Shown: positions 29,420-46,152 of the stretch, piece after piece | Numbering within the stretch: position 1 is the stretch's first letter | Layout: the number at the start of each line of letters is the position of its first letter | Virus record (IMG/VR): IMGVR_UViG_3300039008_000027 | Location: 1 to 46,152 of that record | Length of the DNA stretch: 46,152 nucleotides | Reading direction: 5' to 3' (one strand) | Source of the DNA: a virus | The notes under the pieces: generated by a model | Told to the model about the DNA's origin: nothing | Database searches by the model: none | Seen by the model: only the letters and a program-made list of their open reading frames with translations | Made by a program: the position numbers and the translations under genes

Positions 29420-29454
29420 TACCCATAAAGCAGGGCTTTCGCCCTGCCCCTCCG

Positions 29455-31825: not shown

Positions 31826-31851
31826 ATAATACTCCAATATTTTTTAATGAG

Positions 31852-31883
31852 AAAAAAAAAGGGAAGGGAAAAATCCCCTCCCC
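31852..31883 (-). terminator. Intrinsic terminator after the SSB gene
   Basis: The minus strand reads GGGGAGGG-GATTTTT-CCCTTCCC followed by a T9 run. Confidence 0.7.
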
Positions 31884-31915
31884 TTTATAGGACTTGCTAA
31901 CCTACGCTAACAATA

Positions 31916-32401: not shown

Positions 32402-32481
32402 GATATATACTCTCTATGTTACGCACTACGTGCTTAGGTTAAACGCCTCTCGGCTTGAAAAAACTTTTTAAAACTTAAAAC

Positions 32482-32787
32482 TTACTGAAGGGTTACGCCT
32501 TCGTCGTCGTCCAGCGCCACACTATAAATAGCTGCTTCATTTACCAGAACGAACGCATAAGGTTCGCCCTCGCTGAAGTGACTATCCATAACCATGCCCG
32601 CTCCAAATCGGACTGTTCGGTTAATCAGCTTCTTGCCTTCCCGAACAAGTTGTCCACATGATACAACCACGCCTTGAGGCTCGATACTATTTTGTCCGCC
32701 TCCAACAAGCGCGATACCACCTTCACTTACTTCAGGGTTGCGAATGCGAATCATTACATTCGCTCCCCATGCTGCAAACTTACTCAT
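32482..32787 (-). CDS. GroES/Cpn10-like small beta-barrel protein (putative co-chaperonin)
   Basis: 101 aa from ATG 32787. VMIRIRNPEVSEGGIALVGGGQNSIEPQGVVVSCG aligns by eye to GroES [27 protein letters not shown], and the C-terminal strand pattern is similar. Confidence 0.5.
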   Translation of the reverse strand: MSKFAAWGANVMIRIRNPEVSEGGIALVGGGQNSIEPQGVVVSCGQLVREGKKLINRTVRFGAGMVMDSHFSEGEPYAFVLVNEAAIYSVALDDDEGVTLQ

Positions 32788-33652
32788 CAACTTCCTCTGC
32801 TTTCGCATAACGACTTGCCCACTTCTCGACAAGAGGAACAAAGTCAGGTTTTAATTTAGAAGAACGCTGCAGGTTACGTGTCTTGAGCTGCATGTTCTTC
32901 GCCTCCGTAGACCAGCTAAACTTACTACCCTCATCCGTCGCCAGAACAACATCCGAGAAGTGTTTACCAAAGTCATACGTATTCTTATTACCCAGCACTT
33001 TAGGGTACTTGTAAATACGTCCCTCAACCTCATCCTTATTAAGTTCCAGATGAGCAACCAATACAAACATAGCCGTCAGACTATTAACACACTGGTTAAT
33101 GAAACGCATCTCCGCATCCATCGCGATACCCCAGTCCGCAATTGTCTTAACTGGTTTCGCACCAACAACTAAGTCCATACACATAGTGTTGATACCACTC
33201 AGCCCGTCAATTACCAGACAACGGTCATTGCCCCACTCCGTTGCGTTACCATAGCTCACGCCATGCTGGTCAACAAAGTCCTCACACAAGCCAATCAGGT
33301 CAATCATCTGTTGATACTTCTGATTGTCAATACCTTTCTCGCCCTGCATATCCTTCTGAGTGCTGCGGTTAATAGTCTTGGCAATCTTCTTCAGGCTACC
33401 AAAACCTGGGCTACCCGCACTAACACGAGCCCAATGCAACTTGTCCATCGGAGCTTCTGTTTCAATACAAGCTTCCAGCAAACTTTCTTTACCCTGCTCG
33501 GTAAAGATAACGAAAACTTCCAGACCCGCCTTCAACAGACTCGCAAGCGCATAAGTTTTACCCGCGCCAGGCTGTCCCATCAGCAATACCTTCGGAGCTT
33601 CTTCATTCTCCGGTACGCCCTTAAATAAAACAGCTTCTTTAGCTTCACTCAT
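32780..33652 (-). CDS. RecA-fold / AAA_24-like ATPase (Sak4-like recombination protein)
   Basis: Walker A MGQPGAGKTY, Walker B CLVIDGLSG. ATG 33652 with a GGAGAG RBS (track start TTG 33670). Confidence 0.65.
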   Translation of the reverse strand: MSEAKEAVLFKGVPENEEAPKVLLMGQPGAGKTYALASLLKAGLEVFVIFTEQGKESLLEACIETEAPMDKLHWARVSAGSPGFGSLKKIAKTINRSTQKDMQGEKGIDNQKYQQMIDLIGLCEDFVDQHGVSYGNATEWGNDRCLVIDGLSGINTMCMDLVVGAKPVKTIADWGIAMDAEMRFINQCVNSLTAMFVLVAHLELNKDEVEGRIYKYPKVLGNKNTYDFGKHFSDVVLATDEGSKFSWSTEAKNMQLKTRNLQRSSKLKPDFVPLVEKWASRYAKAEEVDE

Positions 33653-33710
33653 TCCAAACTCTCCAATCAATCACATTAAATAATGTGGTACGTTGTAAAT
33701 GATATAATGT

Positions 33711-33739
33711 ATAGTACAACGCACCTCCCTTACTCGCAA
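33711..33739 (-). promoter_or_regulatory. Sigma70-like promoter (TTGCGA-N17-TACTAT) on the minus strand
   Basis: -35 is the reverse complement of 33734-33739 and -10 of 33711-33716. Overlaps a 9/10 copy of ATTATATAAT (atgatataat, 33699-33708). Confidence 0.4.
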
Positions 33740-33742
33740 GAA

Positions 33743-33955
33743 TTATTTCTTACTCTGCTTACGGATATTACGTCTCCGTCTGGCTTCACGTTTCTGTTGA
33801 GCAGTCCCGCTTTTCTTGCCCCCATTCCCTTTACTTACCACTCGGCAGAACTGACCAGTCGCATGATTATAACCCACATCCACAGGACGCTGCACCGTAT
33901 TCAAACCCAGGGTTGCAGCCAACGCTGCGAGGATACCTTTACTTGTACCAAACAT
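33743..33955 (-). CDS. Small hypothetical protein with a basic C-terminus
   Basis: 70 aa from ATG 33955 (GGAG RBS, just after the upstream stop). Hydrophobic N-terminus, tail KKSGTAQQKREARRRRNIRKQSKK. Confidence 0.5.
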   Translation of the reverse strand: MFGTSKGILAALAATLGLNTVQRPVDVGYNHATGQFCRVVSKGNGGKKSGTAQQKREARRRRNIRKQSKK

Positions 33956-33956
33956 A

Positions 33957-34367
33957 TTATAAATCTCCAGTTTTCTTAGAACCAATTGACAGGAAAGTTC
34001 CTTCTGAAACCATGTCACTCCCGTCTCTGAACACCGCTGGCTCTACCATACCTTCAAGCCAGTAATCATACATCAAGCAGAAGTCGTGCTTGTAAACACC
34101 TTCACTCCACTCAATACCAAACCTATCAATGTAAGGAGTCTCTCGAATAAAGAGACCGCCTCCATGTTCTCGACATACATGGTTCGTAGTCGAGTGTCTC
34201 ACGGGATAAATAGCCTTAACCAGAACCTTGCCCCAAACCTTCCCGCAGATAGGGCAGAACAGATGTGTGTGCCCAGGTTTCCAGAACGCAGCCGAGTCGT
34301 AAGTAATCTCAGCAGTTCCTATCTGTTCATCTCCAACAAACACATCCGCAGGCACACACTTCTTCAT
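33957..34367 (-). CDS. Hypothetical Cys/His-rich protein
   Basis: 136 aa from ATG 34367 (AAGGAGG RBS 8 nt upstream). CPICGK...HVCREH suggests zinc binding. Confidence 0.6.
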   Translation of the reverse strand: MKKCVPADVFVGDEQIGTAEITYDSAAFWKPGHTHLFCPICGKVWGKVLVKAIYPVRHSTTNHVCREHGGGLFIRETPYIDRFGIEWSEGVYKHDFCLMYDYWLEGMVEPAVFRDGSDMVSEGTFLSIGSKKTGDL

Positions 34368-34380
34368 GGCTTGCGCCTCC

Positions 34381-34707
34381 TTAATTATTGTTGAAAACCT
34401 TACAGAGCTTAGCGCGAGTCCACTTAGACTCGTAGTCCTTGTAAGAATCTTCAGTTGTAAATCGAATGGTACGAACAAACTGAAGCTCTCCATTCCAGCG
34501 ATGCTCATACTGAATTGAAAACCCATCTATGCGATGCTTTACTCCGAGTACGTCTAACAAATCCTTGGTTTTACGCCGCAGATACTCACAATCAAAAACA
34601 CCGTTAGGAGTTATTACAATGTAAGTATTAGTTTCCTTGTCGTTAAACATATCATCGAGAAGTTTTACTAACATTCGAGTAGTTGCACCTGTGTTACGTT
34701 TACTCAT
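34381..34707 (-). CDS. Hypothetical protein
   Basis: 108 aa. Start lies 1 nt after the upstream stop. No motif recognised. Confidence 0.65.
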   Translation of the reverse strand: MSKRNTGATTRMLVKLLDDMFNDKETNTYIVITPNGVFDCEYLRRKTKDLLDVLGVKHRIDGFSIQYEHRWNGELQFVRTIRFTTEDSYKDYESKWTRAKLCKVFNNN

Positions 34708-34708
34708 G

Positions 34709-35722
34709 TTATAAATCCTCCACTCTTACTACCGGACTATTCTCAGGGTCTTTAGGATTCCAGACACGAATCGGCATACTCGCTAAGATTTTATGCTGGA
34801 ACTTACTGCGGCAAACCTCGGTGAACTTGCATCCACCATATGCAGCACACCCGTCTGCGAGGTCATACCCCCACTGATTCGATTCCCAAGCTGCCACCAT
34901 CTTGGCAAAGTCGCCATTGACTTGCTGCCACCAAAGCTCAAGTAGGTATTCCGGAAAGGATACTGGAACCTCCATATGCTTAATTGTGGTTTTAAGAATG
35001 CCCGTACCACGAGCGATAACACCGATTGCTGGAATGCCAAGCAGCTTACGGGCGGCATATGTATATCCAAGAAACTGCGCTCGCATGTCCCATTGCCGTG
35101 CCCAACTGGTGCCAAGACTGGTAGTTGTCTTGTCATCCCCCAGCCAGATAGACCCGTCTCTATTTTCCACGTAATCAAATCGGAAGCTATATAACAGTGG
35201 CTTCCCTGTTGTAGGGTGACACACATCCAACTCGAGAACTCCCCCGAGCTCAGAGGCTGGTTCTCCCAGGTGATAATACATTTTCCCTCGGGCAAGTTTA
35301 GGATGATACTCCGTCCAGTAATCAAGAAAAGCTGACACAAGTCTGTCGCACGACTTAGGACTGTCCTTCCAACCGTCCGAAGCCTCTCGCTGCTCATCGT
35401 ATCCATAATGCTCGATAAGAGCCACGATTCCCTTATCCAAGGCTCGCTCATAGTTTTTATAATCCCCCGACTCTTTGGTGAAGAAAGATTTTCTGAAAGC
35501 ATCATGCCCTGCTGCATACGCACCGCCCGCAACTAAGTGAATGCTGTCAGTACCCGTCGCACGGCAAAGAAAGTGCTCATTAAAGCAGCTTCTCTCGCAC
35601 TTGCGAAACGCACTTCTCAGCGTATTGTCAACAGTCTCCGGAAACGGAGGGCGGTTTTTGCCCTCCATAAAACTCCGAACACTATTACTTTTTAAAAAGT
35701 CACAACGTTCTTGAGCTTCCAT
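34709..35722 (-). CDS. PD-(D/E)XK exonuclease with Cas4-like Fe-S cysteines
   Basis: 337 aa. N-terminal Cys (RKCERSCF) plus C-terminal CAAYGGCKFTEVC. Nuclease core DYVENRDGSIWLGDDKTT. Confidence 0.7.
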   Translation of the reverse strand: MEAQERCDFLKSNSVRSFMEGKNRPPFPETVDNTLRSAFRKCERSCFNEHFLCRATGTDSIHLVAGGAYAAGHDAFRKSFFTKESGDYKNYERALDKGIVALIEHYGYDEQREASDGWKDSPKSCDRLVSAFLDYWTEYHPKLARGKMYYHLGEPASELGGVLELDVCHPTTGKPLLYSFRFDYVENRDGSIWLGDDKTTTSLGTSWARQWDMRAQFLGYTYAARKLLGIPAIGVIARGTGILKTTIKHMEVPVSFPEYLLELWWQQVNGDFAKMVAAWESNQWGYDLADGCAAYGGCKFTEVCRSKFQHKILASMPIRVWNPKDPENSPVVRVEDL

Positions 35723-36006
35723 TACAGACTCCCCAAAATCCCTGACAGCAAAGAGTCAGTATCCACCTTCTTAGCTTTCTTAGGTGCTGCTCTCTTAGCT
35801 GGCGCTTTCTTCTTAGCATGTGAAGCCTGAGCCTCACGTCCGTACATCACACGAATCTTTTTCAAGTTCTCTGCCAACTCTTCAGCCGGAATAGCTTCCC
35901 CGTTGGCAATACGTCTCCGGCAGTCGATGAGAGTCTTGCGACTCTCCTCCATCTGTTCCGGTGAAAACTTTTGATTCAGAATGTCATCAACATCTATCTG
36001 ACTCAC
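35722..36006 (-). CDS. Hypothetical protein with a Lys-rich tail and terminal LL peptide
   Basis: 94 aa. Ends in KKAPAKRAAPKKAKKVDTDSLLSGILGSL. Coupled to both neighbours. Confidence 0.65.
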   Translation of the reverse strand: MSQIDVDDILNQKFSPEQMEESRKTLIDCRRRIANGEAIPAEELAENLKKIRVMYGREAQASHAKKKAPAKRAAPKKAKKVDTDSLLSGILGSL

Positions 36007-36224
36007 AGTTCCATCTCCAATATTTCATTAAGTAGTTCATCGCTAATTGCTTCGCGCTCTCTCAAGTCCCGCGCAATTAACTTCTCCAAGTACAGGCGCA
36101 TACTACCGTACTGAATGCGCCCAGGTTTCATAGGGTCTTCGAGAAGGCTGAACACCTTCTCCCCTAAGTCTTCACGAACCCGAACCAGACCCAAAGTCTT
36201 AGTCGGGGTAGTCTGCTTGGCCAT
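36003..36224 (-). CDS. Hypothetical small protein
   Basis: 73 aa, with 4-nt and 1-nt overlaps to its neighbours. Confidence 0.6.
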   Translation of the reverse strand: MAKQTTPTKTLGLVRVREDLGEKVFSLLEDPMKPGRIQYGSMRLYLEKLIARDLREREAISDELLNEILEMEL

Positions 36225-37651
36225 TAACCCTCCCCAGATATATGTACCAGTTTAAACATTGCCCGTGTCTGCGCAACATACTTCAAGTTCATTTCCTGCT
36301 GCATTTGCGCTTCCGTCTTAGCATATTTACTAGGCATTAGCTCAGGCATCAAGATAACAACCACACTCGCTTCCAAACCTTTCGCACCGTGTACAGTACT
36401 CAGCGTAACACCGTACCGCGAGTTCATCATAAGCTCCAGCTTACTAATAATCTCCCCGACACTAGTACACTCTTTCTGAAGCATCCAAAGACAGTTAAAC
36501 TTATCTTCTTCTCTTTCCAGAACGCCCCACTTACATTTCTTCGTAAGCTCTGCTTCTTGCTTTTTCCACCATTCCGTCAGTCTTTCACGGAACTCTGGAA
36601 TGTCATCAGTCTTAAACGCTTTCACAAAGCGCTGCATCATCGCCGGAAACTTACCAGTCATCTTGAATGGCGTACGTTGTTTCAGCAACTTCAAAGCTAC
36701 TCCAAACAACGGAGCATTTTGACGACAGATAATCATATCGTTCTCGCTCGTAAAGTCCATCAGTTTATCCGGAGTATGATGCTCCACATAACCATCCGGC
36801 GCGCCAGGTCGTGCTTTAAAGTGAGGAACAATCTCACGCGCCAGCTTAGCAACATTCTCCGGACAACGCCAGCTAATGCTCATCGTATACTGATGACAAC
36901 CAAACATAGTCTTAATGTCCGGCATACTATTCGAGCCCGCCCCGCGGAAACCATAAATAGCCTGATAACTGTCACCCACTGCGATAACACGGTTAGCCAT
37001 TTCATTCAACAGAGCTAACTGCACACCGTTCGTATCCTGCGCTTCATCCACAAACACAGTATGATAACGGTGCATCGACCAGCCACGTTCCTTAATAAAC
37101 TTCAGCGTCATATACAGCATGTCATCAAAATCAACATCCTGCAGATTACGCTCATTAGCTCTCAGAATCTGACGAGCCGCAATACAAATCGCTTCATTCT
37201 CAACTTCTTCAGAAACAATATCATAATTCTCTCGAAGCTCTTCAAAAATCTCCGGCTTAGCAGGCTCAAAGATACCTACACCTGCGTTCTTCGCAACACT
37301 CACCAGGCGAGCAACTTCCGGCTTGGCACTCCCAACACCTTCGGTAATCTTATCCAGCAAATCATAACTCTTATACTGATTCACCTTCGCGCCTCTCGGC
37401 AGTCGCTCTTTCAAGAACTGCCAGCACACGCTATGGAACGTACTTGCCTGGCAATGTTCAGGCAGCTTATTACTCAACTCCTGAACAATCTTCTTGTTAA
37501 AGGCAAGAAAGATACTGTTGCTCGGCACGCTTTGCGCTGCTTCAACAATCACACTCGTCTTACCAGACCCTGCAACACTTTCAATAATCAGGTTATCTTC
37601 TGTGTTTGCCACTCCGTTCAAAATCGCTTGTTGCTCATCTGACCACATCAT
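36224..37651 (-). CDS. UvrD/PcrA-type SF1 DNA helicase
   Basis: Motif I ESVAGSGKTS, motif II VFVDEAQDTN, motif III VGDSYQAIYGFRGA, motif V/VI TVHGAKGLEA ... YVAQTRA. Confidence 0.9.
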   Translation of the reverse strand: MMWSDEQQAILNGVANTEDNLIIESVAGSGKTSVIVEAAQSVPSNSIFLAFNKKIVQELSNKLPEHCQASTFHSVCWQFLKERLPRGAKVNQYKSYDLLDKITEGVGSAKPEVARLVSVAKNAGVGIFEPAKPEIFEELRENYDIVSEEVENEAICIAARQILRANERNLQDVDFDDMLYMTLKFIKERGWSMHRYHTVFVDEAQDTNGVQLALLNEMANRVIAVGDSYQAIYGFRGAGSNSMPDIKTMFGCHQYTMSISWRCPENVAKLAREIVPHFKARPGAPDGYVEHHTPDKLMDFTSENDMIICRQNAPLFGVALKLLKQRTPFKMTGKFPAMMQRFVKAFKTDDIPEFRERLTEWWKKQEAELTKKCKWGVLEREEDKFNCLWMLQKECTSVGEIISKLELMMNSRYGVTLSTVHGAKGLEASVVVILMPELMPSKYAKTEAQMQQEMNLKYVAQTRAMFKLVHISGEG

Positions 37652-38073
37652 TGTACATTTCCTCTTAATTTAACCATTATTGGTTTCAGTTTTTCTAAAG
37701 TGTTAGGCTCAATCAACTTATCAGCGCATTCAAATGCGAGCCACTCACGACGCTCTCGCCTCGCCTCAAGTTCCATCTTACTATATTCCAGAACAGAATC
37801 CTGCAATTCCACATGAAGCTGCCCGACATTAATCAGAGCATCCTTCAAAAACTCCCTCACACACCCAGGAACACCCAACACCAACTCTTCCTGCGGATGC
37901 TCCAACTGCGCCAGCGTACCCAAAATAACACATGCTGACGGTGGATGCCCTACCCCAATTTCCTGAGCAAGACGAGGAAGCAATCCATCAACACCTCCCA
38001 TTGTCGAGATAACCTGCAACATGCAAATCGACTCACTCAAAACCTTCTGCTCTTCTCTATTTAACACGACCAT
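37648..38073 (-). CDS. Hypothetical protein
   Basis: 141 aa with a GAGG RBS. Overlaps its neighbours by 17 and 4 nt. Confidence 0.65.
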   Translation of the reverse strand: MVVLNREEQKVLSESICMLQVISTMGGVDGLLPRLAQEIGVGHPPSACVILGTLAQLEHPQEELVLGVPGCVREFLKDALINVGQLHVELQDSVLEYSKMELEARRERREWLAFECADKLIEPNTLEKLKPIMVKLRGNVQ

Positions 38074-38260
38074 TTTTTAACCTCGCATATCCGGCAACTA
38101 AACATCTATTCACAGCATACTGCTTTGTCTCATTGTAAGCAGCTCTCGCATCCTTGCACATATCCTGCACTGCCTTATTAGGCACATACACTGACTGATA
38201 AACCGAAAAGCTAATCGCAAACAACACAAACATTAACATAGGAAACAAAAACTTTTTCAT
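38057..38260 (-). CDS. Small signal-anchored / secreted protein
   Basis: 67 aa. N-terminus MKKFLFPMLMFVLFAISFSVY is a signal or anchor sequence. ATGA coupling with the upstream gene. Confidence 0.6.
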   Translation of the reverse strand: MKKFLFPMLMFVLFAISFSVYQSVYVPNKAVQDMCKDARAAYNETKQYAVNRCLVAGYARLKNGRVK

Positions 38261-38745
38261 TTCTTCTCTCCAAACACCGCTTCAAGCAGCGCATCAACTT
38301 CGCCTTCACTCACAGGCTCAATACTATCCAAGGCATCTTGACTTACAACCGTCTTAATCTCGCCTTCCAAGAAACACTCTTCGCAATTGGCAACAGTGCT
38401 GGTATGTTCAACCATTTCTCTCGGCGCTTGCAAATCCTCTTCATCAATAAAGCGCGTTTGCAGTTTGTTACCGTGCTTATCAACTTTCTCGCAAAGCACA
38501 TGCTTGTTAACATGTCTGTGCTCACGCCCGCAACACATACAAACTGTAGTATTCACAATCAAAACCAGCCGTGTAGTTTTCAAGCTCGGCTTATTCAAAC
38601 GAGGAGTTGCTATGGCTTCATCCATCAGCGTTTTTTCTTTCTTCTTCTTCTTCTCTTTACCCGCGTCCTCAAGAGCCACGCCTTTATCCAAGTTAGTCAG
38701 AAGATTACCAAGCAGCGCATTCACATCAACTTTTTTCTTAGCCAT
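38257..38745 (-). CDS. Hypothetical zinc-ribbon protein
   Basis: 162 aa. CMCCGREH...NCEECF Cys pairs. N-terminus MAKKKVDVNALLGNLL and a poly-Lys tract. Confidence 0.65.
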   Translation of the reverse strand: MAKKKVDVNALLGNLLTNLDKGVALEDAGKEKKKKKEKTLMDEAIATPRLNKPSLKTTRLVLIVNTTVCMCCGREHRHVNKHVLCEKVDKHGNKLQTRFIDEEDLQAPREMVEHTSTVANCEECFLEGEIKTVVSQDALDSIEPVSEGEVDALLEAVFGEKK

Positions 38746-38912
38746 TACTTGTTCTCCTTCTTACTCATTTTCAAAAGTTCTTCCACCATCATTGCCATAT
38801 CTTCTGGCAAAAGCTCAACAGAACCCTGGATTTGACTGCCTTTGTACTGAGTGATAACCCACTTACCATTCTTCAGCACCCAGCTTGCTGTCTTAGTCTG
38901 AAATGTTTTCAT
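38745..38912 (-). CDS. Small hypothetical protein (55 aa), not in the ORF track
   Basis: GAGGAA RBS 6 nt upstream of ATG 38912. Product is MKTFQTKTASWVLKNGKWVITQYKGSQIQGSVELLPEDMAMMVEELLKMSKKENK. Its stop overlaps the next ATG (TAATG). Confidence 0.55.
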   Translation of the reverse strand: MKTFQTKTASWVLKNGKWVITQYKGSQIQGSVELLPEDMAMMVEELLKMSKKENK

Positions 38913-39002
38913 AACAATTCCTCGTTTGCCCCCTCACTCATTCGCACCAGTGAAGGATAAGTCTGTGTGGTGCGCCACATTATAAAATGTCACTTTACAC
39001 GA

Positions 39003-39031
39003 ATTATATAATATATTCCCTACACTCGCAA
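39003..39031 (-). promoter_or_regulatory. Sigma70-like promoter (TTGCGA-N17-TATAAT) on the minus strand
   Basis: -35 is the reverse complement of 39026-39031 and -10 of 39003-39008, inside a perfect ATTATATAAT (39003-39012). Lies about 90 nt upstream of ATG 38912. Confidence 0.6.
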
Positions 39032-39035
39032 CCCT

Positions 39036-39464
39036 TTAAAGCGCCTCCAAAAGTTTGTCAAGCAGCCCCTTCTCCTTAGGCTGCAAGTGCAAAAAAGGTT
39101 TTAAAAACTCTGGCTCCCCTTCTTCCCAGGTCAAGCGTTGTCCCAACTTCCAGGCTTCCTTCACCCTTTCTATAAAATCCTCCTTGTGAATACGAATTTC
39201 TTGCTGGTCAAACAGCGGACTCATATTCGCAGCAAACGGCAACGTATCACACGCCTCCCACAAATGACACTCCACTTCCAGCCCCATCTCTTGAACAAAG
39301 TGCAGATACCATTGCCCTTGCTCCCAACACAACAAACTAAAGTGCTCTTCGTCCTTAAACAACGCAAGCACTGCCAAACCAAACTCTCCCTTCCACTCTT
39401 TAGGAATATACGCAGCAGCCCATTCTGCTCTATCTGCCAGTTTAAACATAATAAAAAACCCCAT
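39036..39464 (-). CDS. Hypothetical protein
   Basis: 142 aa (or 137 aa from ATG 39449). No clear RBS. Trp-rich. C-terminus is KGLLDKLLEAL. Confidence 0.55.
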   Translation of the reverse strand: MGFFIMFKLADRAEWAAAYIPKEWKGEFGLAVLALFKDEEHFSLLCWEQGQWYLHFVQEMGLEVECHLWEACDTLPFAANMSPLFDQQEIRIHKEDFIERVKEAWKLGQRLTWEEGEPEFLKPFLHLQPKEKGLLDKLLEAL

Positions 39465-39517
39465 GCAGTTAAATTACACCATAAGCATAACACAACTGCA
39501 CGGGGCTCGATACTACT

Positions 39518-39676
39518 TTAATCTTTCTTGCCATACCGCTCCGGATTAGGTTTCAAACTTATCCCAGTTTTCTTCCTCGAAGCTTTGACAATCTCTTCCA
39601 GACTCTTACAATCACCAAAATCCTGCAAGAAATTCTTTCGCCAATATTCTGGCACATGCCTTGACACACTTCCCAT
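39518..39676 (-). CDS. Small basic hypothetical protein (52 aa)
   Basis: AGGAGGAAGTGT precedes ATG 39676 (track ORF starts at 39745). Product is MGSVSRHVPEYWRKNFLQDFGDCKSLEEIVKASRKKTGISLKPNPERYGKKD. Confidence 0.55.
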   Translation of the reverse strand: MGSVSRHVPEYWRKNFLQDFGDCKSLEEIVKASRKKTGISLKPNPERYGKKD

Positions 39677-39686
39677 ACACTTCCTC

Positions 39687-39920
39687 CTATATAGAGTCCA
39701 AAAAGGTTGTAAGATATTGCAACTCTTTATCAATGCCCTCAGCATCTAGCAAGGGAACTCTGTCATGAGCTTCTTCCATGCCTTCTTGCTCAACGCCCTG
39801 GGAATTCACAAAACCTCTTTCAAAAGCATCTTCCAGGCTCATAGCACCTCGCGCAAAATCTTCTCGAGCGCACTCTTCTTCCACAACTTGCTGTAGAAAG
39901 TAATCAGCCATTTCTCCCAT
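39687..39920 (-). CDS. Small acidic hypothetical protein (77 aa)
   Basis: GGGAGGAAGTGT precedes ATG 39920. Strongly acidic (many E/D) with no Cys-pair motifs. Confidence 0.6.
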   Translation of the reverse strand: MGEMADYFLQQVVEEECAREDFARGAMSLEDAFERGFVNSQGVEQEGMEEAHDRVPLLDAEGIDKELQYLTTFLDSI

Positions 39921-40082
39921 ACACTTCCTCCCGTTGAATCAGCAATTTAACAATCGCTGTCGCGATTGAAATTCCGGTCGAGGCGGGACTAGCTTCCCCG
40001 CGAACGCCGTTAAGAGCCTGTCGTCGGCGAGCCGCCGCCATGCCAAACGTAGCGCCCGCGAAAAAGCTCGTCTATCCGCCTC

Positions 40083-40955
40083 TTATTCAACTACCTTCAA
40101 TCCCAGCTTTTCAGCTTGTTGCTTGATACGCTTCTTCTCATAAGCCTGGTTCTTTTCTTCCTGGGCTTTCTGCTCGGCGGCCTTCTCTTCCAGATACTTA
40201 GTTTCCTTCTCTGGCAAAGTAACACCCGCCTCCTGCATCTCCCGCAAAACCCGCACATGCCAGTGGTGTCCGGTCTTACCCATCTTCTCCAGGTACTCTT
40301 CCAGACGTTTAACACAATCTTCTTTCGTCCGGCCAATTACGCAGTGTTTCGTATCACCGCTATCATCCGAGTACTTGTGCAAACACCAGTCGAAGAAATC
40401 CACCCACTTCCCTTCACGTTTCTCCGTCTGAATGCTGACCATCCGCATCCCGTAATCTCCCTTCAGCTCGCTAACCTTGCAAAGCTCAAAGCCGCCGTAC
40501 CCTCCCCAGCCCGCGACCCAGAGGTCAACGCCCTCCACGAAGTCACACAAATACTCCAGCTGAGGGAACTTCTTGCTAACCCCTTCTAGCCGCTTCTTCA
40601 AGGCCTCCGTATCCTTCACCAAAGCCGCCCGCTCATTTCGTGACTTATCCGCCAGCCCTTTCCAGTACTCGGCTTGCTGCTTAGCCCGCGCAATATCCTC
40701 GTCCAGATACTTCGGTACAAGTTGCTTCGGCTTCTCCGTCCACAGCTCATCCTTGCTATAAACCACGAACTGACCCGTGCCTTCCAGCTCCTCCCCGCAA
40801 GGTTCACCGTTATAATCCTGCGTCCAGCTCAGTCCCAACACTTCAACCAGAACCTCACCGTTACCCAAGTCCCTGTCAAACCCGAAACACAGCCCTCTCT
40901 TATCGAAGACCTCAGCCCCCACTTTCAACTCACCTTTAAACTCACTCAGTTTCAT
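40083..40955 (-). CDS. Hypothetical protein with a central and C-terminal coiled coil
   Basis: 290 aa. ATGA coupling to the upstream micro-ORF. No motif recognised. Confidence 0.7.
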   Translation of the reverse strand: MKLSEFKGELKVGAEVFDKRGLCFGFDRDLGNGEVLVEVLGLSWTQDYNGEPCGEELEGTGQFVVYSKDELWTEKPKQLVPKYLDEDIARAKQQAEYWKGLADKSRNERAALVKDTEALKKRLEGVSKKFPQLEYLCDFVEGVDLWVAGWGGYGGFELCKVSELKGDYGMRMVSIQTEKREGKWVDFFDWCLHKYSDDSGDTKHCVIGRTKEDCVKRLEEYLEKMGKTGHHWHVRVLREMQEAGVTLPEKETKYLEEKAAEQKAQEEKNQAYEKKRIKQQAEKLGLKVVE

Positions 40956-41062
40956 TCCTTATCTCCTAACATGTAACCTACTCCAAAGCAGAAACATACA
41001 GTTCCCGCCCAAACCCAAAACAAATGCCAGACATTAACTGTCACCAGATACTCTGTCACCAT
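40952..41062 (-). CDS. Micro membrane protein (36 aa), not in the ORF track
   Basis: Product is MVTEYLVTVNVWHLFWVWAGTVCFCFGVGYMLGDKE. The start overlaps the upstream stop (ATGGTGA) and the stop overlaps the downstream start (ATGA). Confidence 0.5.
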   Translation of the reverse strand: MVTEYLVTVNVWHLFWVWAGTVCFCFGVGYMLGDKE

Positions 41063-41415
41063 TTATCCTCCAGCCTCTCAACGTCAGCTTCTAAATCCCG
41101 AACCTGCCCCCTTAGGGTATCAGCCTCTTCCCGCGCTTCTTCCAGCTCCTTCTCCAATTCTTCAATCGCAGTCTGTGAGTCCTCGCCCCAAGAACGTAGC
41201 TGGCTATTCGCATCGCGAATCTCTTCCATCCGTTGTTCCCAGACCGTCCAATCAAACTCCTCCCAAGCTCCGTGCAGATTCTTCAGCTGCTCCACCGAAC
41301 ACTCATCAAACTCTGTCGCACAGTCCACATTATACGCCAGCGCTTCAACTTCATCCTTGCAAGCATCTACCAGAGGACACGTATACCCAACAGGCTCGCC
41401 CGTGATTCTACTCAC
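41056..41415 (-). CDS. Hypothetical acidic coiled-coil protein
   Basis: 119 aa with a GTG start and AGGAG 7 nt upstream. C-terminal half is a heptad-like EELEKELEEAREEADTLRGQV. Confidence 0.65.
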   Translation of the reverse strand: MSRITGEPVGYTCPLVDACKDEVEALAYNVDCATEFDECSVEQLKNLHGAWEEFDWTVWEQRMEEIRDANSQLRSWGEDSQTAIEELEKELEEAREEADTLRGQVRDLEADVERLEDKW

Positions 41416-41548
41416 TGCCTTTCTCCTCTCTCAAAAGTTCTCTAAACCCGCCAAACGCCAGGAATAGACCCACCGCAGTTAGAATACCCTGGTCATAACC
41501 CACCAGAGCAATCCCCGCCCAGAAACAAATAACACCCACAGCCTTCAT
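41408..41548 (-). CDS. Micro membrane protein (46 aa), not in the ORF track
   Basis: Product is MKAVGVICFWAGIALVGYDQGILTAVGLFLAFGGFRELLREEKGSE (two hydrophobic helices). ATG lies 3 nt after the upstream stop. The end overlaps the next GTG start. Confidence 0.5.
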   Translation of the reverse strand: MKAVGVICFWAGIALVGYDQGILTAVGLFLAFGGFRELLREEKGSE

Positions 41549-41551
41549 CTC

Positions 41552-41794
41552 CTACTCCCCGGCGAAGCCGGCCGCCCCAGCGGTCAAGCTAGCAGCTTTC
41601 ACAGCTCTCAGCTCAGGTTTATTTTCCACACAGGTCGGACAAATGTGGGAGCTCGGAAAACCGTCAACCTCACTTACCCACCACCCGCTACTTTCAAGCC
41701 TGGCATTTGCGGCTTCTTCATCGAGCGCCCAAATCTTCTCAGCATCCCCGCCACAATTCTGGTCACACACAACTAAAAACAGCTTCTTAAACAT
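41552..41794 (-). CDS. Hypothetical Cys-rich small protein
   Basis: 80 aa from ATG 41794 (GGGAG RBS; track start 41833). CDQNCGG ... HICPTC suggests a zinc ribbon. Confidence 0.55.
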   Translation of the reverse strand: MFKKLFLVVCDQNCGGDAEKIWALDEEAANARLESSGWWVSEVDGFPSSHICPTCVENKPELRAVKAASLTAGAAGFAGE

Positions 41795-41853
41795 ATCCAA
41801 TCTCCCGCCGAAGGCGGCTGCCCCAGGACTCAACCCAAGGCGAAGCCCCCAGC

Positions 41854-42546
41854 TTATACTCTATCAGCAGCCTCATCATTATTCAACTCTGGGTTAAAAC
41901 GTCCCAGAATATAATCAGGCCTTCTTTGGTCTGGTTGCGGGCAGGCTGCGGTAATACGCCAACCCTTCCCTAACTGAACTTGCAACTCATCCGAGCAACA
42001 ATCTTCAAGCAGCATAATATCATTATACGTACTCAGTGCCTGGCCTGGCATATGGACTTCACACCGCTGGTTATATTGGTCGCCTTCCTTCTGCACAACC
42101 ATCGCGCCCTTATCGCCCACCGTCTGAAAAGCACTGCTTGCATTCAGCGTCTTTTTAACAACCTGCTCAACTCTCAGCCCTTTGTCAACTTCCAGCATCT
42201 TCAGGTACACATCATCCGTAACCCAAACCGAGTCTCCTTCGCCTTCCAGCAATGGCCGACTCTCCCACTTCTTGTTTTCACTTTCCTTTGTCTCGCCTTC
42301 CGGTCTTTCCACCAGCTCGGCCAAATCAAAATCCGGCAAGAACTCCGCTAGCTTCTCAACTTTCTTGCGCTCCCGCAAATACTCATCATAGTGCCCATAA
42401 CTACCCGTACGCAGTTCCAGCTTAAACAATCTTATAACTAAATCTTCCACACTAACTCCTTCCCCCGCCATTCGGCGAAGTTTTTCTCCAAATAATCGGT
42501 TGTCCGCAGCAATCACTTTCCTCAAAAGTAACCCTGCCCCAACCAT
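41854..42546 (-). CDS. Hypothetical protein
   Basis: 230 aa from 42546, or 205 aa from ATG 42471. Neither start has a strong RBS. No motif recognised. Confidence 0.6.
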   Translation of the reverse strand: MVGAGLLLRKVIAADNRLFGEKLRRMAGEGVSVEDLVIRLFKLELRTGSYGHYDEYLRERKKVEKLAEFLPDFDLAELVERPEGETKESENKKWESRPLLEGEGDSVWVTDDVYLKMLEVDKGLRVEQVVKKTLNASSAFQTVGDKGAMVVQKEGDQYNQRCEVHMPGQALSTYNDIMLLEDCCSDELQVQLGKGWRITAACPQPDQRRPDYILGRFNPELNNDEAADRV

Positions 42547-42652
42547 CTTCGTACCAGTCCGCGTTCACTTCACACTCTTTCCGGCAAGCTTGGCAAACTG
42601 GAACATCACCGCGTTCAATCTTCTCTCTGAAAACCTTCTGGGATGCCGTCAT
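42452..42652 (-). CDS. Small Cys-rich hypothetical protein (66 aa)
   Basis: GGAG lies 7 nt upstream of ATG 42652 (track ORF 42452..42775). CQACRKEC ... CCG. Overlaps both neighbours. Confidence 0.45.
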   Translation of the reverse strand: MTASQKVFREKIERGDVPVCQACRKECEVNADWYEDGWGRVTFEESDCCGQPIIWRKTSPNGGGRS

Positions 42653-42992
42653 ACAATGTCTCCGCAAATTCCAGCAATTCACTTTCCAGGCGCGCCTTTT
42701 CTTGCACCTGAGCTTCCAAAGCGACAAGCAATGCAAACTTTTGAACCAAATCCAGCACACCAGACCCGTTCTCAATCCCTAACCCCGCAAGAGTATGGTT
42801 CGGATTGTTGCCAATCTGCACATCCTTACACTCCCCGAAGAAAGTACCACAACTCTTACCCGCAAACTGGTGGTCACCTCCACAAACATGTCTTTTATCA
42901 CGAGGAAACATAGCCCAAACTTTCTGGTACGCTTCCTGCCCTACTTTCGCAGCCTTCGCGTCGATTCTGCTTTGTAAACTAGCTAATTCCAT
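42615..42992 (-). CDS. Hypothetical protein
   Basis: 125 aa with a GGCGGAGG RBS. Lies directly downstream of an ATTATATAAT motif. Confidence 0.65.
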   Translation of the reverse strand: MELASLQSRIDAKAAKVGQEAYQKVWAMFPRDKRHVCGGDHQFAGKSCGTFFGECKDVQIGNNPNHTLAGLGIENGSGVLDLVQKFALLVALEAQVQEKARLESELLEFAETLYDGIPEGFQRED

Positions 42993-43017
42993 TTTAAACC
43001 TCCGCCCAAATGGGCAT

Positions 43018-43027
43018 ATTATATAAT
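43018..43027 (-). promoter_or_regulatory. ATTATATAAT motif, candidate -10 element for the gene starting at 42992
   Basis: Perfect palindromic 10-mer 26 nt upstream of ATG 42992, in the 52-nt gap after the first early gene. Confidence 0.4.
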
Positions 43028-43044
43028 TGAAAACTCAACGAATG

Positions 43045-43512
43045 TTATAATTCGTCAACCTCGTCCAAATCGAAATCCCCGAGAACATCCTTCATGAAGT
43101 CTCCCGTAAGTTCGGGTTCTAAATCATTCTTCGGAGAACCCTCAACCTCCACTGGAGCTTTATCGAAGTCATCCAGCCCCGCCAATGAAGCTTCTGCGGC
43201 TTCAATCATTGGATTACGCTCCGTAGCCGCGTTAACAAAGCGTAGCGTCTTACCTTCCAGCTTAATTTTCGTCTCCTTATGGACACGAAACAATTCCTGA
43301 TAACCAATGGGGTCATCAGTTCTTTCCGCAGGAGTCATCTTCGCAATCTTACGTTCCAGTGCCTTACCGAAGCCGTAACACTGAAGACGGAAGTTGCTCG
43401 CTTCCCGCTTATACTTAAACTCGATTTCGTGAATTTCCGGCACTGAGCCGAGTTTACGGTACAGGCGGAAGAATACGCCCGAATAAGTTTCTATGTTTTT
43501 AGGTGTTGGCAT
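43045..43512 (-). CDS. First gene of the leftward early operon, hypothetical (acidic tail)
   Basis: 155 aa from ATG 43512 (AAGGAG 5 nt upstream; track start 43542). C-terminus is GDFMKDVLGDFDLDEVDEL. Confidence 0.65.
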   Translation of the reverse strand: MPTPKNIETYSGVFFRLYRKLGSVPEIHEIEFKYKREASNFRLQCYGFGKALERKIAKMTPAERTDDPIGYQELFRVHKETKIKLEGKTLRFVNAATERNPMIEAAEASLAGLDDFDKAPVEVEGSPKNDLEPELTGDFMKDVLGDFDLDEVDEL

Positions 43513-43557
43513 ATATGCTCCTTCATCAGAATAAATATTCACTTCTATTACGATTTG

Positions 43558-43600: not shown

Positions 43601-43829
43601 CGGAAACGGGTAAATAACCATTTACCCCGATACTACCCCGATATTACCCCGATTGCTAGCAAATCGATGAGGGGGTGATACCCATGTATAGCTAAGTGTA
43701 TGTTTTATATATATTTTTTTTTAATACATACCTACTCATACGCCCATGAGTCACCCCTACCTGCTCGCCCTAGCAATCGGGGTAATATCGGGGTTACAAC
43801 GGGGATAATAAATATTTGCCCCGTTTACC
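43601..43829. promoter_or_regulatory. Dyad-symmetric iteron element with an AT-rich core (candidate origin/operator)
   Basis: TACCCCGAT x3 at 43623/43634/43645 (11-bp period) is mirrored by ATCGGGGTA-like x3 at 43776/43787/43798. A 25-nt perfect inverted repeat is present. The nested pairs GGGGTGA/TCACCCC and GTATGT/ACATAC share the same centre at 43714/43715. Confidence 0.8.
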
Positions 43830-43957: not shown

Positions 43958-43986
43958 TTGCTCCCTCGCTTGGTTAAAAGTATTAT
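43958..43986 (+). promoter_or_regulatory. Sigma70-like promoter candidate (TTGCTC-N17-TATTAT), plus strand
   Basis: 17-nt spacing. Lies about 85 nt upstream of ATG 44070. Confidence 0.4.
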
Positions 43987-44069: not shown

Positions 44070-44603
44070 ATGGCTCGTAAACAATTTAATTTTGTAGTAT
44101 CCGGCACAGCAGTAGTTGTTCAACGTCTGACTTATGCAGACCCAGACGCTCCAGCGGTAGTTGCTGAAGAAAAGACTTTCGCAGTAGCCGACGTTCCAGC
44201 TGAGCTTACCAATGGCGAAGGTGTTGTTTCACTGGCAGCATACGGCCTATCCCAGGTTCTTCAAGACCGCGTGTCAAGCTGTGACGCTGACGAAAAACTT
44301 GAAGCTATGGAGAAGGTGTTCGGCAACCTGGTAGACGGCAAGTGGAAAGAAGCTCGTCAGTCAACTGGTGCAACGAAGAAAGCTGCTATCGACCCATTCT
44401 TCGCGAAAGGTTTCTCTCTGTTCCTGCAAGGTCAGGGCAAAGATGTTACCGCAGAGCAGGCTACTATCATCCTGCAAGGTCTGGATGCAGACCAGCGCAA
44501 AGCACTGCGTACCAATGACGACATTAAGGCGTTCATTGAGAAAGCTAAAGAAGAAGCAACCGCTTCTGTTGCAGACCTTGACCTATCTTCACTGCTAGGC
44601 TAA
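44070..44603 (+). CDS. Hypothetical protein, paralogue 1 of a diverged pair
   Basis: 177 aa. Shares SLAAYGLS..LQDR, FFA.GF, GKDVT.EQAT.ILQG, QRKALR and the terminal LDL.SLLG with the 45297..45863 product. Confidence 0.8.
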   Translation: MARKQFNFVVSGTAVVVQRLTYADPDAPAVVAEEKTFAVADVPAELTNGEGVVSLAAYGLSQVLQDRVSSCDADEKLEAMEKVFGNLVDGKWKEARQSTGATKKAAIDPFFAKGFSLFLQGQGKDVTAEQATIILQGLDADQRKALRTNDDIKAFIEKAKEEATASVADLDLSSLLG

Positions 44604-44610
44604 GGTAAAT

Positions 44611-44641
44611 GGGAGGGTGAATGTCCTCCCTTGCTATTGTT
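44611..44641 (+). terminator. Hairpin / weak terminator after paralogue 1
   Basis: gggagg-gtgaatgt-cctccc followed by ttgctattgtt. Confidence 0.45.
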
Positions 44642-44716
44642 CTCAATAGTTGGCCACGAGAGTGGCGTTGTTTATCCTGATTGGGGCGTAAGCCCTTTAG
44701 AAAGTTTCTTTTTCAG

Positions 44717-44749
44717 CCCCTGCTCGTTTTGAGTGGGGGTTTTTTTTTT
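44717..44749 (+). terminator. Intrinsic terminator
   Basis: cccc..ctc-gtttt-gag..gggg hairpin followed by a T10 run. Confidence 0.65.
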
Positions 44750-44817
44750 CACCAAGACGAAGTCTTGGAGGGATTCATTTTAGTCTCGGTGATTTGGGAA
44801 GGTTTTGGAGGGGATAG

Positions 44818-44827
44818 ATTATATAAT
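44818..44827 (+). promoter_or_regulatory. ATTATATAAT motif, candidate -10 element for the 69-aa gene
   Basis: Perfect 10-mer 91 nt upstream of ATG 44918. A second TATAAT sits at 44847-44852. Confidence 0.4.
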
Positions 44828-44917
44828 GTGATTCGGCTCGCAATTTTATAATGTGGTATAGACAAGCTGGCTAAATGTGCTAAGGTTGGAGGGTGTTAAA
44901 CAAACGAGGACAAAAAC

Positions 44918-45127
44918 ATGACGGGAAAATTTGAATACGTGAATGGCGCGGAAATGGCAACGGCTGTGGCGGTGGTAATAAAGAATATAGAAAACCTTTG
45001 TTATTATGACCTGCAAACAATGCAAGATGTCGCCATAGCTTACGGCAAGAATAGCGGAAGCGAGGAAGAAAAAGCCATATGGAAGGCACTGGAAGATATG
45101 ACGCAAAAAGAAATTTGCAAAAAGTAG
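44918..45127 (+). CDS. Small hypothetical protein (69 aa)
   Basis: GAGGA RBS 8 nt upstream. Its last 7 codons are duplicated 43 nt downstream. Confidence 0.6.
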   Translation: MTGKFEYVNGAEMATAVAVVIKNIENLCYYDLQTMQDVAIAYGKNSGSEEEKAIWKALEDMTQKEICKK

Positions 45128-45169
45128 AGGGCTGGCCGCGATAGCGGGAAAAGAAATTTGCAAAAAGTA
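45106..45169 (+). repeat. 21-bp direct repeat (aaaagaaatttgcaaaaagta) flanking a 22-bp GC-rich insert
   Basis: Copies at 45106-45126 and 45149-45169, separated by gagggctggccgcgatagcggg. Confidence 0.9.
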
Positions 45170-45296
45170 AAATAAAAGCTGGACAAGGGGACAAAGTTCC
45201 CCTATTATTCACGGTGTAGGGAGCGAAGTCGCTTTCTACCAGCCCTTGAAAAGGGCGGTTTGTAAACAAAACTATTAGCATAAAGGATAACAACTT

Positions 45297-45863
45297 ATGA
45301 AAACTAAAAACGTATTTACCCTAACAAGCGATTCAGTAGAAATGAAAGTTATGGACGTGACTAACCCTGATGAGCACAAGGAGCTTGCCAAGCACGAGTT
45401 TGACGTGACCGCCATCCCCGTGATTTTGGAGGACGGTGAACAAGCAAGCAAGAGTCTGGCGGCTTATGGCCTATCAAGACTGATGCAAGACCGCTGCTCG
45501 GACTTTACCGATAGCAAGCTAGGGGATGTTTGCGCGACTGCGGCCGAAGTGGCGAAGGCGAGACTGGAAGCGTATCAGGCGGTGTTTGACACGTTAGCGG
45601 GCGGTCAATTCAGGGCAAGAAGGGCGACTTCGAAAGCGGGCGCAAGTGTTGACGCCTTCTTCGCGAGTGGCTTTGCGGCCTTCTGTAAGGCGAATGGGAA
45701 GGACGTTACGCCCGAACAAGCTACGGTTATCTTGCAGGGTATGTCGGGAGAGCAGCGCAAGGCACTACGCGCGGATGACCGGATTAAGCCATTCATCGCG
45801 GAGGCGAGGGAAGCGGCAAGGACTGCGGTAGACGGGTTAGACTTGGAGTCCTTGCTTGGTTAA
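45297..45863 (+). CDS. Hypothetical protein, paralogue 2 of the pair
   Basis: 188 aa with an AAGGA RBS. Homologous to the 44070..44603 product, with visibly more GC-rich codon usage. Confidence 0.8.
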   Translation: MKTKNVFTLTSDSVEMKVMDVTNPDEHKELAKHEFDVTAIPVILEDGEQASKSLAAYGLSRLMQDRCSDFTDSKLGDVCATAAEVAKARLEAYQAVFDTLAGGQFRARRATSKAGASVDAFFASGFAAFCKANGKDVTPEQATVILQGMSGEQRKALRADDRIKPFIAEAREAARTAVDGLDLESLLG

Positions 45864-45885
45864 AAGACAAACGAAGTTTGTCGGA

Positions 45886-45912
45886 GCCGTTCCATTGTGG
45901 AGCGGCTTTTTT
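45886..45912 (+). terminator. Intrinsic terminator after paralogue 2
   Basis: gccgttcca-ttg-tggagcggc (9-bp stem including one G-T pair) followed by a T6 run. Confidence 0.7.
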
Positions 45913-46011
45913 ACGTCCGAAGGACGCGGGATGCTCGCGTGCGTGCGAGTGGGTGCTTCGGGTGAGGGGGGTGGGGTTTCCCCCCGAGGGGTGGGGACGG
46001 CGCAGTGGTTT

Positions 46012-46152
46012 CAAGCCTCGTTTCCGGACGCGCAGACCCCCTTACATCTGAAGAAAGCTCCCTTCGAAGAGGAGTTGCCTTCTGCGGCAAACCCGATATT
46101 CTCTTCTCCGTAGGGGGTCAAGCGGGTTGACCTCTCGAGGACGCCCGGCTTC
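46012..46152. repeat. Terminal overlap, copy B (identical to 1..141)
   Basis: Same 141-nt string as the window start. Confidence 0.95.

Follow-up and report, generated by a model that had tools for sequence, protein, structure and literature searches.

What is the function of two related genes that sit together at the end of a phage genome, and why are there two of them? The question is raised by IMG/VR virus record IMGVR_UViG_3300039008_000027, a stretch of 46,152 nucleotides that was analysed in full and is referred to below as the window. The two genes, here called A (44070..44603, + strand) and B (45297..45863, + strand), encode proteins of 177 and 188 residues. An earlier sequence-only reading of this DNA recognised them as a diverged paralogue pair, and saw in their layout a moron-like or very early arrangement, typical of host-takeover or anti-defence cargo. 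Comparison with related genomes argues against cargo: the pair is an obligate, anciently duplicated and fixed core module of this podovirus group. As to function, we hypothesise that an abundant major protein (A) and a minor one (B) act as a non-enzymatic accessory, or hub, in replication and recombination near the origin, docking by means of a short peptide at their tails. We give this reading a probability of roughly 0.35. Already known is an unannotated protein family, PHROG 28928; the obligate A/B pairing and all of the functional inference are new here.

Sequence relationship of the two paralogues

A and B align over their full length (BLASTP: 42% identity, 59% positives, E 8e-31), and all of the shared blocks quoted in the sequence-only reading, including the LDL(S/E)SLLG ends, are found in both proteins. 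A matches PHROG 28928 with E 5.9e-58 (residues 1–176 on profile positions 1–198 of 199) and B with E 2e-55. Because both match this one PHROG at such values, and belong to a family of 357 clusters (see below), their homology is far beyond chance. The same profile is matched by 119 of 125 diverse relatives, and the family is the same as PHROG 28928, which carries no function, structure or remark on obligate A/B pairs.

Conservation between the two is uneven. Identity is only 24% over the N-terminal 53 residues, as expected from the differing N-terminal thirds noted earlier, and rises to 48% in the core, 57% in the C-terminal domain and 78% in the tail. Both proteins are acidic, with net charges of −7 and −5. 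A (isoelectric point (pI) 4.7) has an N-terminal β domain, six helices and the tail ADLDLSSLLG. B (pI 5.2) has the tail GLDLESLLG, a 14-residue insertion after the YGLS..QDR helix, and a G-x-F turn in place of G-x-W.

In the Vibrio-type lineage the A copies and the B copies form separate clades, and the A-type G-x-W, the B-type G-x-F and the insertion that B copies have behind the QDR helix are common to marine (Vibrio-type) and freshwater lineages. The duplication is thus ancient, and A and B are true diverged paralogues, as the sequence-only reading had suggested. That reading had also considered a separate acquisition, noting that B is the more GC-rich gene. The difference is real (GC 0.54 in B vs 0.49 in A; GC at third codon positions 0.60 vs 0.42), but it arises because A is codon-optimised and B is not, an asymmetry seen in every lineage analysed (see below). 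Together with the A-like C-terminal domain of B, this speaks against separate acquisition.

The window's B is itself of composite character. Its N-terminal and core region is 53–55% identical to other B copies and 34–35% to A copies, while its C-terminal domain (residues 109–168) is 55–57% identical to A copies and only 38–48% to other B copies. B is thus a mosaic, which indicates gene conversion from A in this sublineage and accounts for the strong C-terminal likeness noticed in the earlier reading.

A 17-nucleotide match (16 of 17) was also observed between 43964–43980, in the spacer of the promoter of A, and 45850–45866, which covers the last codons of B, its stop codon and AAAAG. The number expected by chance in the region is about 0.01, and the match may be a scar of recombination or a regulatory element common to both sites. 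A fossil third copy was considered and rejected, the upstream open reading frame (ORF) having by eye no likeness to the family, and the match overlapping the promoter spacer of A.

Distribution, copy number and synteny

Relatives were gathered from metagenomes, both by identity and by pattern, and then searched with a family hidden Markov model (HMM; hmmsearch). Exactly two family members are present in all 15 independent loci with enough flanking sequence (the window; ABTNL-3; L002/L003; L004; L007; L008; L009; L010/L011; L012; Mel-JY34; the IMG/VR contigs L017–L021; and L025, a phage-like contig of a metagenome-assembled genome (MAG)). These span marine Vibrio-type, freshwater and Microcystis phages and the one MAG contig, L010/L011 and L012 being distant freshwater phages. 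The copy-number variation that the sequence-only reading had proposed to look for among relatives is therefore absent from these loci.

The position of the pair is also constant, between the start of the early/replication arm and terS/terL and never within the portal-capsid-tail block. In most loci the two copies are in tandem; in L018, L020 and L021 they are convergent, one copy being inverted.

Among 1.84 billion representative proteins, the family comprises 357 clusters (50% identity, E<=1e-3), all of 150–200 residues. A search of 185,579 cellular genomes gave a single match, to a phage-like MAG contig, and the family thus appears to be restricted to phages and essentially absent from cellular genomes. 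Vibrio phage ABTNL-3 is the only GenBank phage with close homologues, PVS_50 and PVS_51, at the same genome end and in the same two-gene arrangement. It was also the only match by megablast and tblastn against 50,697 phage records; the more distant members in Microcystis phage Mel-JY34 (XAI96502 and XAI96444) were recovered by the HMM alone. A literature search on these two phages turned up no functional or proteomic data. No members were found in 119X, in Caulobacter phage Kuura (first 8.5 kb only) or in a Desulfofustis phage. The 'RecBCD inhibitor' at the equivalent position of the Desulfofustis phage is unrelated to A/B.

On the basis of these observations the moron-like interpretation stands only in part. 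Each gene does have its own promoter and terminator, as described below, but the variable presence that marks a moron is missing. Anti-defence cargo is likewise not supported, given an invariant core in 15 of 15 loci and no match in PADLOC (a library that models defence, not anti-defence, proteins).

It is the slot between A and B, and not the pair, that behaves like a moron site, because only the slot genes vary among relatives. In the window the slot holds a variable cargo ORF of 69 residues (44918..45127, + strand) with a GAGGA ribosome-binding site and no match in Pfam, PHROG or PADLOC. In relatives it holds unrelated genes, encoding 62 and 59 residues in L002, 187 residues in L004 and 176 residues in L007. 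The 3′ end of the 69-residue ORF is duplicated as a 38-nucleotide direct repeat (45089–45126 and 45132–45169, ending in AAATTTGCAAAAAGTA), which resembles the footprint of an insertion at a moron hotspot. An AAATT(A)ATTTGCAAA element, similar to the end of this repeat, lies upstream of the B promoter in relatives.

Family searches and predicted fold

The sequence-only reading did not recognise the family, and the searches made here place it nowhere beyond the unannotated PHROG: it is not assignable to any other known family. Pfam searches with the pair and 125 diverse members (E<=0.01) gave no consistent family, only ten unrelated families with one member each, all weak. Five diverse members gave no match in NCBIfam or in PADLOC (E<=0.1 in both cases), and a PDB sequence search with family profiles gave nothing. 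The best profile match in the Pfam, NCBIfam, PADLOC and PDB searches was TcpA at E 0.003, which is under its cutoff. The JGI annotation names the 188-residue B (P0023) orotidine-5′-phosphate decarboxylase. Neither Pfam nor NCBIfam supports this label, which is spurious, an annotation error that could propagate.

A model of A was built with AlphaFold2 using the alignment of 125 sequences. It has a mean predicted local distance difference test score (pLDDT) of 95.2 and a predicted template modelling score (pTM) of 0.64, and consists of an N-terminal β meander (residues 4–38) and six helices. A loop at residues 89–108 holds the conserved G90, W92 and R96. The tail (residues 169–177) is modelled as coil, yet with pLDDT of about 92. 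Conservation across the family is highest in the helix YG[LIV]xKxLQDR[TS]S, in the G-x-W/F turn and in the C-terminal peptide.

Comparison of predicted structures with Foldseek, a check that the sequence-only reading had put forward, found no relative in the PDB (two models; best E 0.086, TM<=0.24 throughout, no single-stranded DNA-binding protein (SSB)). Against the viral models of BFVD (one model), only family members were found, four of them at E<=1e-3. The fold is confidently predicted, and outside the family it is unmatched in the PDB and in BFVD. Matches to the XRCC4/XLF/SAS-6 superfamily recurred but were not significant (E 0.15–0.9, probability 0.03–0.69, TM 0.11–0.24). Those to Cas9, ribosomal and α-crystallin structures had TM<=0.24, and were also rejected. 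A phage SSB was rejected as well, there being no oligonucleotide-binding (OB) fold by Foldseek or by PDB sequence profile.

Promoters, terminators and codon usage

A is preceded by a σ70-like promoter at 43958..43986 (+ strand; TTGCTC, 17 nucleotides, TATTAT, followed by a conserved A(T/C)AT(G/A)TAGGG start region). An alignment of upstream regions shows that the hexamers, their spacing and the downstream ATRTAGGG block are kept in six relatives, and this is the sole match to the promoter pattern in the window. The promoter of B, at 45180..45208 (+ strand; TGGACA, 17 nucleotides, TATTAT; 10/12 matches), has an AT-rich stretch upstream and is kept in position in relatives. Because both promoters are σ70-like and conserved, unmodified host RNA polymerase could plausibly transcribe the two as immediate-early genes.

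Each gene ends at its own intrinsic terminator, and the earlier calls at 44717–49 and 45886–912 agree with those made here. That of A (44715..44751, + strand) has a GC-rich stem of 11–12 bp at 44715–44741 followed by U10 (folding free energy −19.3 kcal/mol, z −3.8), and that of B (45883..45914, + strand) a 12-bp stem at 45883–45908 followed by U6 (−24.8 kcal/mol, z −5.4). The support for the terminator of B comes from folding. The strongest terminator calls in the window lie after A, after the acidic-tailed ORF next to Sak4 and after the capsid gene, as well as near 1306 and where the two arms meet. The two genes are thus separately transcribed units that diverge from the early operon, just as the sequence-only reading proposed.

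Upstream of the terminator of A, its 3′ untranslated region contains three consecutive hairpins (44611..44666, + strand; −27.1 kcal/mol, z −3.8), which may stabilise the A mRNA. An Rfam scan gave no family at its gathering score over the hairpins, the best being the L20 leader (44542–44642, 33 bits against a gathering score of 59), and Rfam and tRNA scans of the A/B region gave nothing above threshold.

Codon usage separates the paralogues clearly. It was scored with a gamma-proteobacterial set of optimal codons taken from general knowledge, which may not be that of the host. On this scale the fraction of optimal codons in A is 0.73, the highest in the genome (effective number of codons (ENC) 39), compared to 0.67 in an acidic-tailed ORF at 31916–32401, 0.58 in the capsid gene and 0.41 in B. 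The rare-codon fraction of B, 0.22, is the highest among ORFs of more than 100 codons. A exceeds B in optimal codons in 8 of 8 lineages, including the freshwater ones. The asymmetry is therefore a property of the system, with a major paralogue (A) and a minor one (B): by its codons A is made for very strong expression, as befits a protein required stoichiometrically, and B is ordinary.

The acidic-tailed ORF just mentioned (− strand, 161 residues) is second only to A in codon optimisation, and its ENC is the lowest of the whole genome. It ends in GDDEDEE, has a strong terminator of its own (31886–31858) and lies one gene away from Sak4. It has no Pfam, PHROG or NCBIfam match, and judged by eye we suspect it to be the phage SSB.

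High early expression of an acidic protein would also suit a conserved host-takeover decoy. In this alternative A would be made in bulk at the onset of infection, and its D-L-x-x-L-L tail would titrate a conserved host hub (a replication, division or transcription factor), so that the host process is shut down or the hub is handed to the phage. Promoters usable by unmodified host RNA polymerase, the extreme codon optimisation of A (as for a stoichiometric inhibitor), the acidity of the proteins and their position at the genome end or arm junction are all consistent with it; gene 0.3 of T7 likewise lies near the genome end. The tail pattern, D-φ-x-x-φ-φ, is of the kind seen in general docking peptides of bacteria, among them the C-terminal peptide of FtsZ and the tip of SSB. 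Genes of this type are usually patchy and turn over fast, whereas the pair is invariant and has fixed synteny across Vibrio, Microcystis and freshwater hosts, so that host takeover would have to be a conserved core function and not accessory cargo. The decoy further leaves unexplained why two paralogues with opposite expression levels are constantly retained and why the peptide occurs on phage replication-module proteins (see below), and neither PADLOC, a defence library, nor any known inhibitor family provides a match. We consider it unlikely.

The codon data bear equally on a possible place in the virion, as capsid decoration or cement, or as internal or ejected proteins, with A in high copy and B as a vertex or other minor component. 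T4 gp23 and gp24 are a familiar major/minor pair of capsid paralogues, and such logic fits the A>B asymmetry and a codon bias in A above that of the capsid gene. In the window's lineage the pair also lies just upstream of, and co-oriented with, the lysis, packaging and structural genes. The orientation is not general: in L019, L025 and Mel-JY34 the pair runs in the direction of the early replication genes, and the three convergent loci have one copy inverted. The genes are monocistronic units with full −35/−10 promoters outside the portal-to-tail block, an acidic scaffold-like gene of 310 residues already precedes the capsid gene, and no capsid, decoration or tail fold was matched in the PDB or BFVD. 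A virion role is, in our view, highly unlikely.

The tail peptide and the replication module

The consensus of the tail is [DE]-[LVI]-D-L-[SDG]-[DS]-L-[LF], or in short form [VI]-D-L-x-[DS]-L-[LF]. It is acidic and amphipathic, it usually stands at the C-terminus or a few residues from it, and both A and B end in it. The same peptide occurs at the termini of several proteins of the replication module. A small helical protein of 94 residues (35722..36006, − strand), encoded between the UvrD-like helicase and the exonuclease, has IDVDDIL at its N-terminus and KKVDTDSLL at its C-terminus, and its orthologues in ABTNL-3, L002, L017, L019 and L021 keep the C-terminal K-V-D-L-D-D-L-L. In other loci the peptide is found N-terminally on Zn-ribbon proteins (twice in L018). 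An N-terminal extension bears it in the UvrD-like helicase of L017, the helicases of L019 and L025 have it as MDMDKLI, and the window's primase begins with MKFDVKDLM.

The strict pattern occurs 4 times in the window against 0.34 expected from shuffled sequences, 3 times against 0.08 in L017, and 3 times against 0.17 in L019. It is absent from the family-negative relatives 119X and the Desulfofustis phage. When the family of the 94-residue protein was aligned with A/B using hhalign, only the 11-residue tail aligned, and the peptide is therefore taken to be a shared short linear motif and not a mark of shared ancestry. For the same reason, homology of the 94-residue protein to the C-terminal domain of A/B was rejected.

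Two further identities for the tail were rejected. Clamp-binding motifs have the consensus QL[SD]LF or QLxLxL, while the consensus of the tail lacks the glutamine and has an acidic residue where leucine is needed; it is not a canonical sliding-clamp motif. Nor is it a mimic of the SSB tip, since it tolerates C-terminal extensions.

The replication hub favoured here would work as follows. A, with B as a specialised partner, would build up early, and the two would assemble at the adjacent iteron region or on replicating DNA, making contact through a conserved Y/W/R/K surface (YGLxKxLQDRxS, GxW, R96). The terminal peptide would be a docking motif for a shared partner, either phage-encoded or from the host. 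Because the same peptide stands at the termini of the 94-residue, the Zn-ribbon and some helicase and primase proteins, this partner would probably be a replisome or recombination hub. Alternatively, the A/B body may itself be a groove that takes up these peptides, its own tail included.

The latter possibility can be taken further, to a replication organiser of new fold. An oligomer or polymer of A, capped or nucleated by B, would form at the lineage-specific iteron origin, with a groove that receives D-L-x-x-L-L peptides. Its own tails would serve self-assembly or auto-inhibition, while the helicase, primase, Zn-ribbon and exonuclease-associated termini would also dock, giving a motif-wired replication and recombination hub in place of the clamp- or SSB-centred hubs of model phages. 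In this elaborate form we regard the proposal as speculative and unlikely to be right.

In favour of the replication hub are the invariance of the pair, its constant place beside the iterons and the first early gene, the expression signals of A and B, the tail peptide common to replication-module proteins, the lack of a recognisable SSB or initiator among the ORFs scanned, and the near absence of the family from cellular genomes. Several observations weigh against it. Mel-JY34, though family-positive, gave no strict-pattern matches; a looser pattern limited to the termini shows only modest to moderate enrichment; and the primase and helicase instances are missing from some orthologues. The abundance of A is read from a codon set that is perhaps not the host's. 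No homology points to DNA binding or to any partner, Foldseek found neither an OB fold nor another known DNA-binding fold, and both proteins are acidic overall (pI 4.7 and 5.2). The acidic-tailed ORF at 31916–32401, itself without a family match, may already fill the SSB role, and an abundant protein bearing the docking peptide of the replication enzymes could compete with them and not cooperate.

Iterons and the neighbouring gene

An inverted repeat of iterons lies at 43608..43821, with the early leftward promoter on one side and the promoter of A on the other. Each arm has about three copies of ACCCCGAT-type units of 11–12 nucleotides, and the arms are separated by an AT-rich spacer of 110 nucleotides. 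Two inverted arms of two to three iterons are found upstream of the A copy in the window, L002 (9520–9743), L020 (9679–9874) and L021 (9705–9893). Weaker repeats accompany A in ABTNL-3, and lie upstream of it in L007 and L024 (40650–40801). The sequences of the units are specific to the lineage (ACCCCGAT..., ATCCCCCACAC, AACCCCTAAAA, CCCACATAAG). Since the architecture is kept but the sequence is not, some sequence-specific binding protein of the module should co-evolve with it. The candidates implied are the variable N-terminal domains of A and B, or the gene next to the iterons.

This gene, here called p165 (43045..43542, − strand), is the first of the early arm. It encodes 165 residues with an acidic tail, GDFDLDEVDEL, and an N-terminal P-x-N-Y-x-x-F signature. 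In all lineages examined, a gene of the p165 type either adjoins the A/B copies or lies between them. The p165 protein has no family match in Pfam, PHROG or NCBIfam, and may be the partner that binds the iterons or acts as initiator. A scan of ORFs of at least 100 residues revealed no recognisable SSB or initiator.

The iterons also suggest an architectural transcription regulator or nucleoprotein switch, in which A and B would cover or bend the iteron DNA that separates the divergent early and rightward promoters and so set the early-to-late programme. The pair does lie at a divergent promoter region, always beside inverted iteron arms of lineage-changing sequence; its variable N-terminal β domains could read lineage-specific DNA, and A is, from its codon usage, abundant. 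Set against this, no helix-turn-helix, ribbon-helix-helix or other DNA-binding fold was found, the p165-type neighbour is at least as good a candidate for recognising the iterons, and the peptide shared with the replication proteins is left without explanation. Such a switch overlaps the replication hub instead of excluding it. As a separate account we think it quite unlikely, and the probability that remains falls to something else altogether.

Genome context

The window is a phage genome of about 46.0 kb, assembled as a circle. Positions 1–141 are repeated exactly at 46012–46152, which is the junction of the earlier reading; the repeat may reflect overlap in a circular assembly, or else be a short direct terminal repeat. 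The linear record of ABTNL-3 stops at the equivalent place, about 400 bp past gene B. The capsid protein is 81% identical to that of Vibrio phage vB_VspS_VS-ABTNL-3, 49% to that of Microcystis phage Mel-JY34 and 27% to that of 119X; such Fredfastierviridae-like podoviruses are remoter relatives.

The layout was obtained from PHROG and Pfam scans of the window's ORFs. On the + strand the A/B pair is followed, across the junction, by lysis and fibre-like genes, then packaging and structural genes, ending at 25438. The small ORFs past the junction are read as holin-like, with an M15-like endolysin (its motifs judged by eye, with no family match), and the next genes as tail-fibre-like. There follow a helix-turn-helix small-terminase-like gene, terL, portal, the acidic scaffold-like gene, capsid, tail genes and a gene for a protein of 1683 residues. 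The − strand arm (25464–43542) carries a DUF3987 primase, a split PolA, polynucleotide kinase, a ParB-methyltransferase, dUTPase, Sak4, a PD-(D/E)XK-type exonuclease, the UvrD-like helicase and orphan early genes.

Three further features of this genome were noted. The family-A DNA polymerase is split over two ORFs (26752–27717 and 27710–29419, − strand), its L024 counterpart being at 24872–28006, and ABTNL-3 has an additional ORF of 184 residues (PVS_28) between the halves. The C-terminal half of the 1683-residue protein at the end of the structural block (20387–25438, + strand) matches DarB-like antirestriction and giant virion-protein PHROGs, and the protein is probably an ejected multifunctional one. 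Two large tail-fibre-like ORFs of 456 and 775 residues (1906–5613, + strand) match PHROG 10818/22875, which have no annotated function; ABTNL-3 and L002 have shorter, different genes in their place. The segment is a host-range cassette between the lysis and packaging genes.

Comparison with known systems

If the replication hub is correct, the pair would represent a solution, new at the level of the fold, for wiring the replisome and origin of a small phage, based on a short docking peptide recognisable in the sequence itself. A PHROG with hundreds of aquatic members, and several neighbouring orphan genes, would gain a function, and the group includes a cultured system, ABTNL-3 with Vibrio splendidus. 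Even without a function, the locus teaches that a gene at a genome end with its own promoter and terminator need not be cargo, and that a GC gap between paralogues can mirror expression level and not foreign origin.

The layout resembles that of T7 gene 0.3 (Ocr) and of morons: A and B are stand-alone promoter-terminator units near a genome end, acidic, and likely to be expressed very early and strongly. Those genes are accessory and patchy, whereas A and B appear to be universal core genes of their group. Their net charge is only −7 and −5, they have no Ocr or other Pfam match and no PADLOC match, and the moron slot is the gene between them.

The p6 protein of phi29, a functional analogue for the switch proposed above, is a small, acidic, histone-like protein of about 100 residues, encoded by a single gene and extremely abundant early, which acts at the replication origins and in the switch between early and late promoters. 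A and B have no detectable homology to it (Pfam scans of 125 A/B members), and for them DNA binding is only proposed.

The T7 replisome provides the functional precedent for the proposed hub. The gp4 helicase-primase has an acidic tail similar to, and interchangeable with, that of gp2.5, and it binds the same surface of the polymerase. In gp2.5, an abundant, acidic accessory protein that binds single-stranded DNA, the acidic and hydrophobic C-terminal tail touches DNA polymerase as well as helicase, and also folds onto the protein's own body or its dimer partner (PMC10359462). A and B differ from gp2.5 in having no OB fold and no similarity of sequence or fold, and in being two paralogues outside the replication operon instead of one gene. 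Their motif is the aliphatic D-L-x-x-L-L and need not be at the extreme C-terminus, while that of T7 is a run of acidic residues ending in an aromatic one. The likeness to gp2.5 and gp4 lies in the arrangement: A, B and several proteins of the replication module carry one and the same terminal peptide, which here is predicted to bind a common partner.

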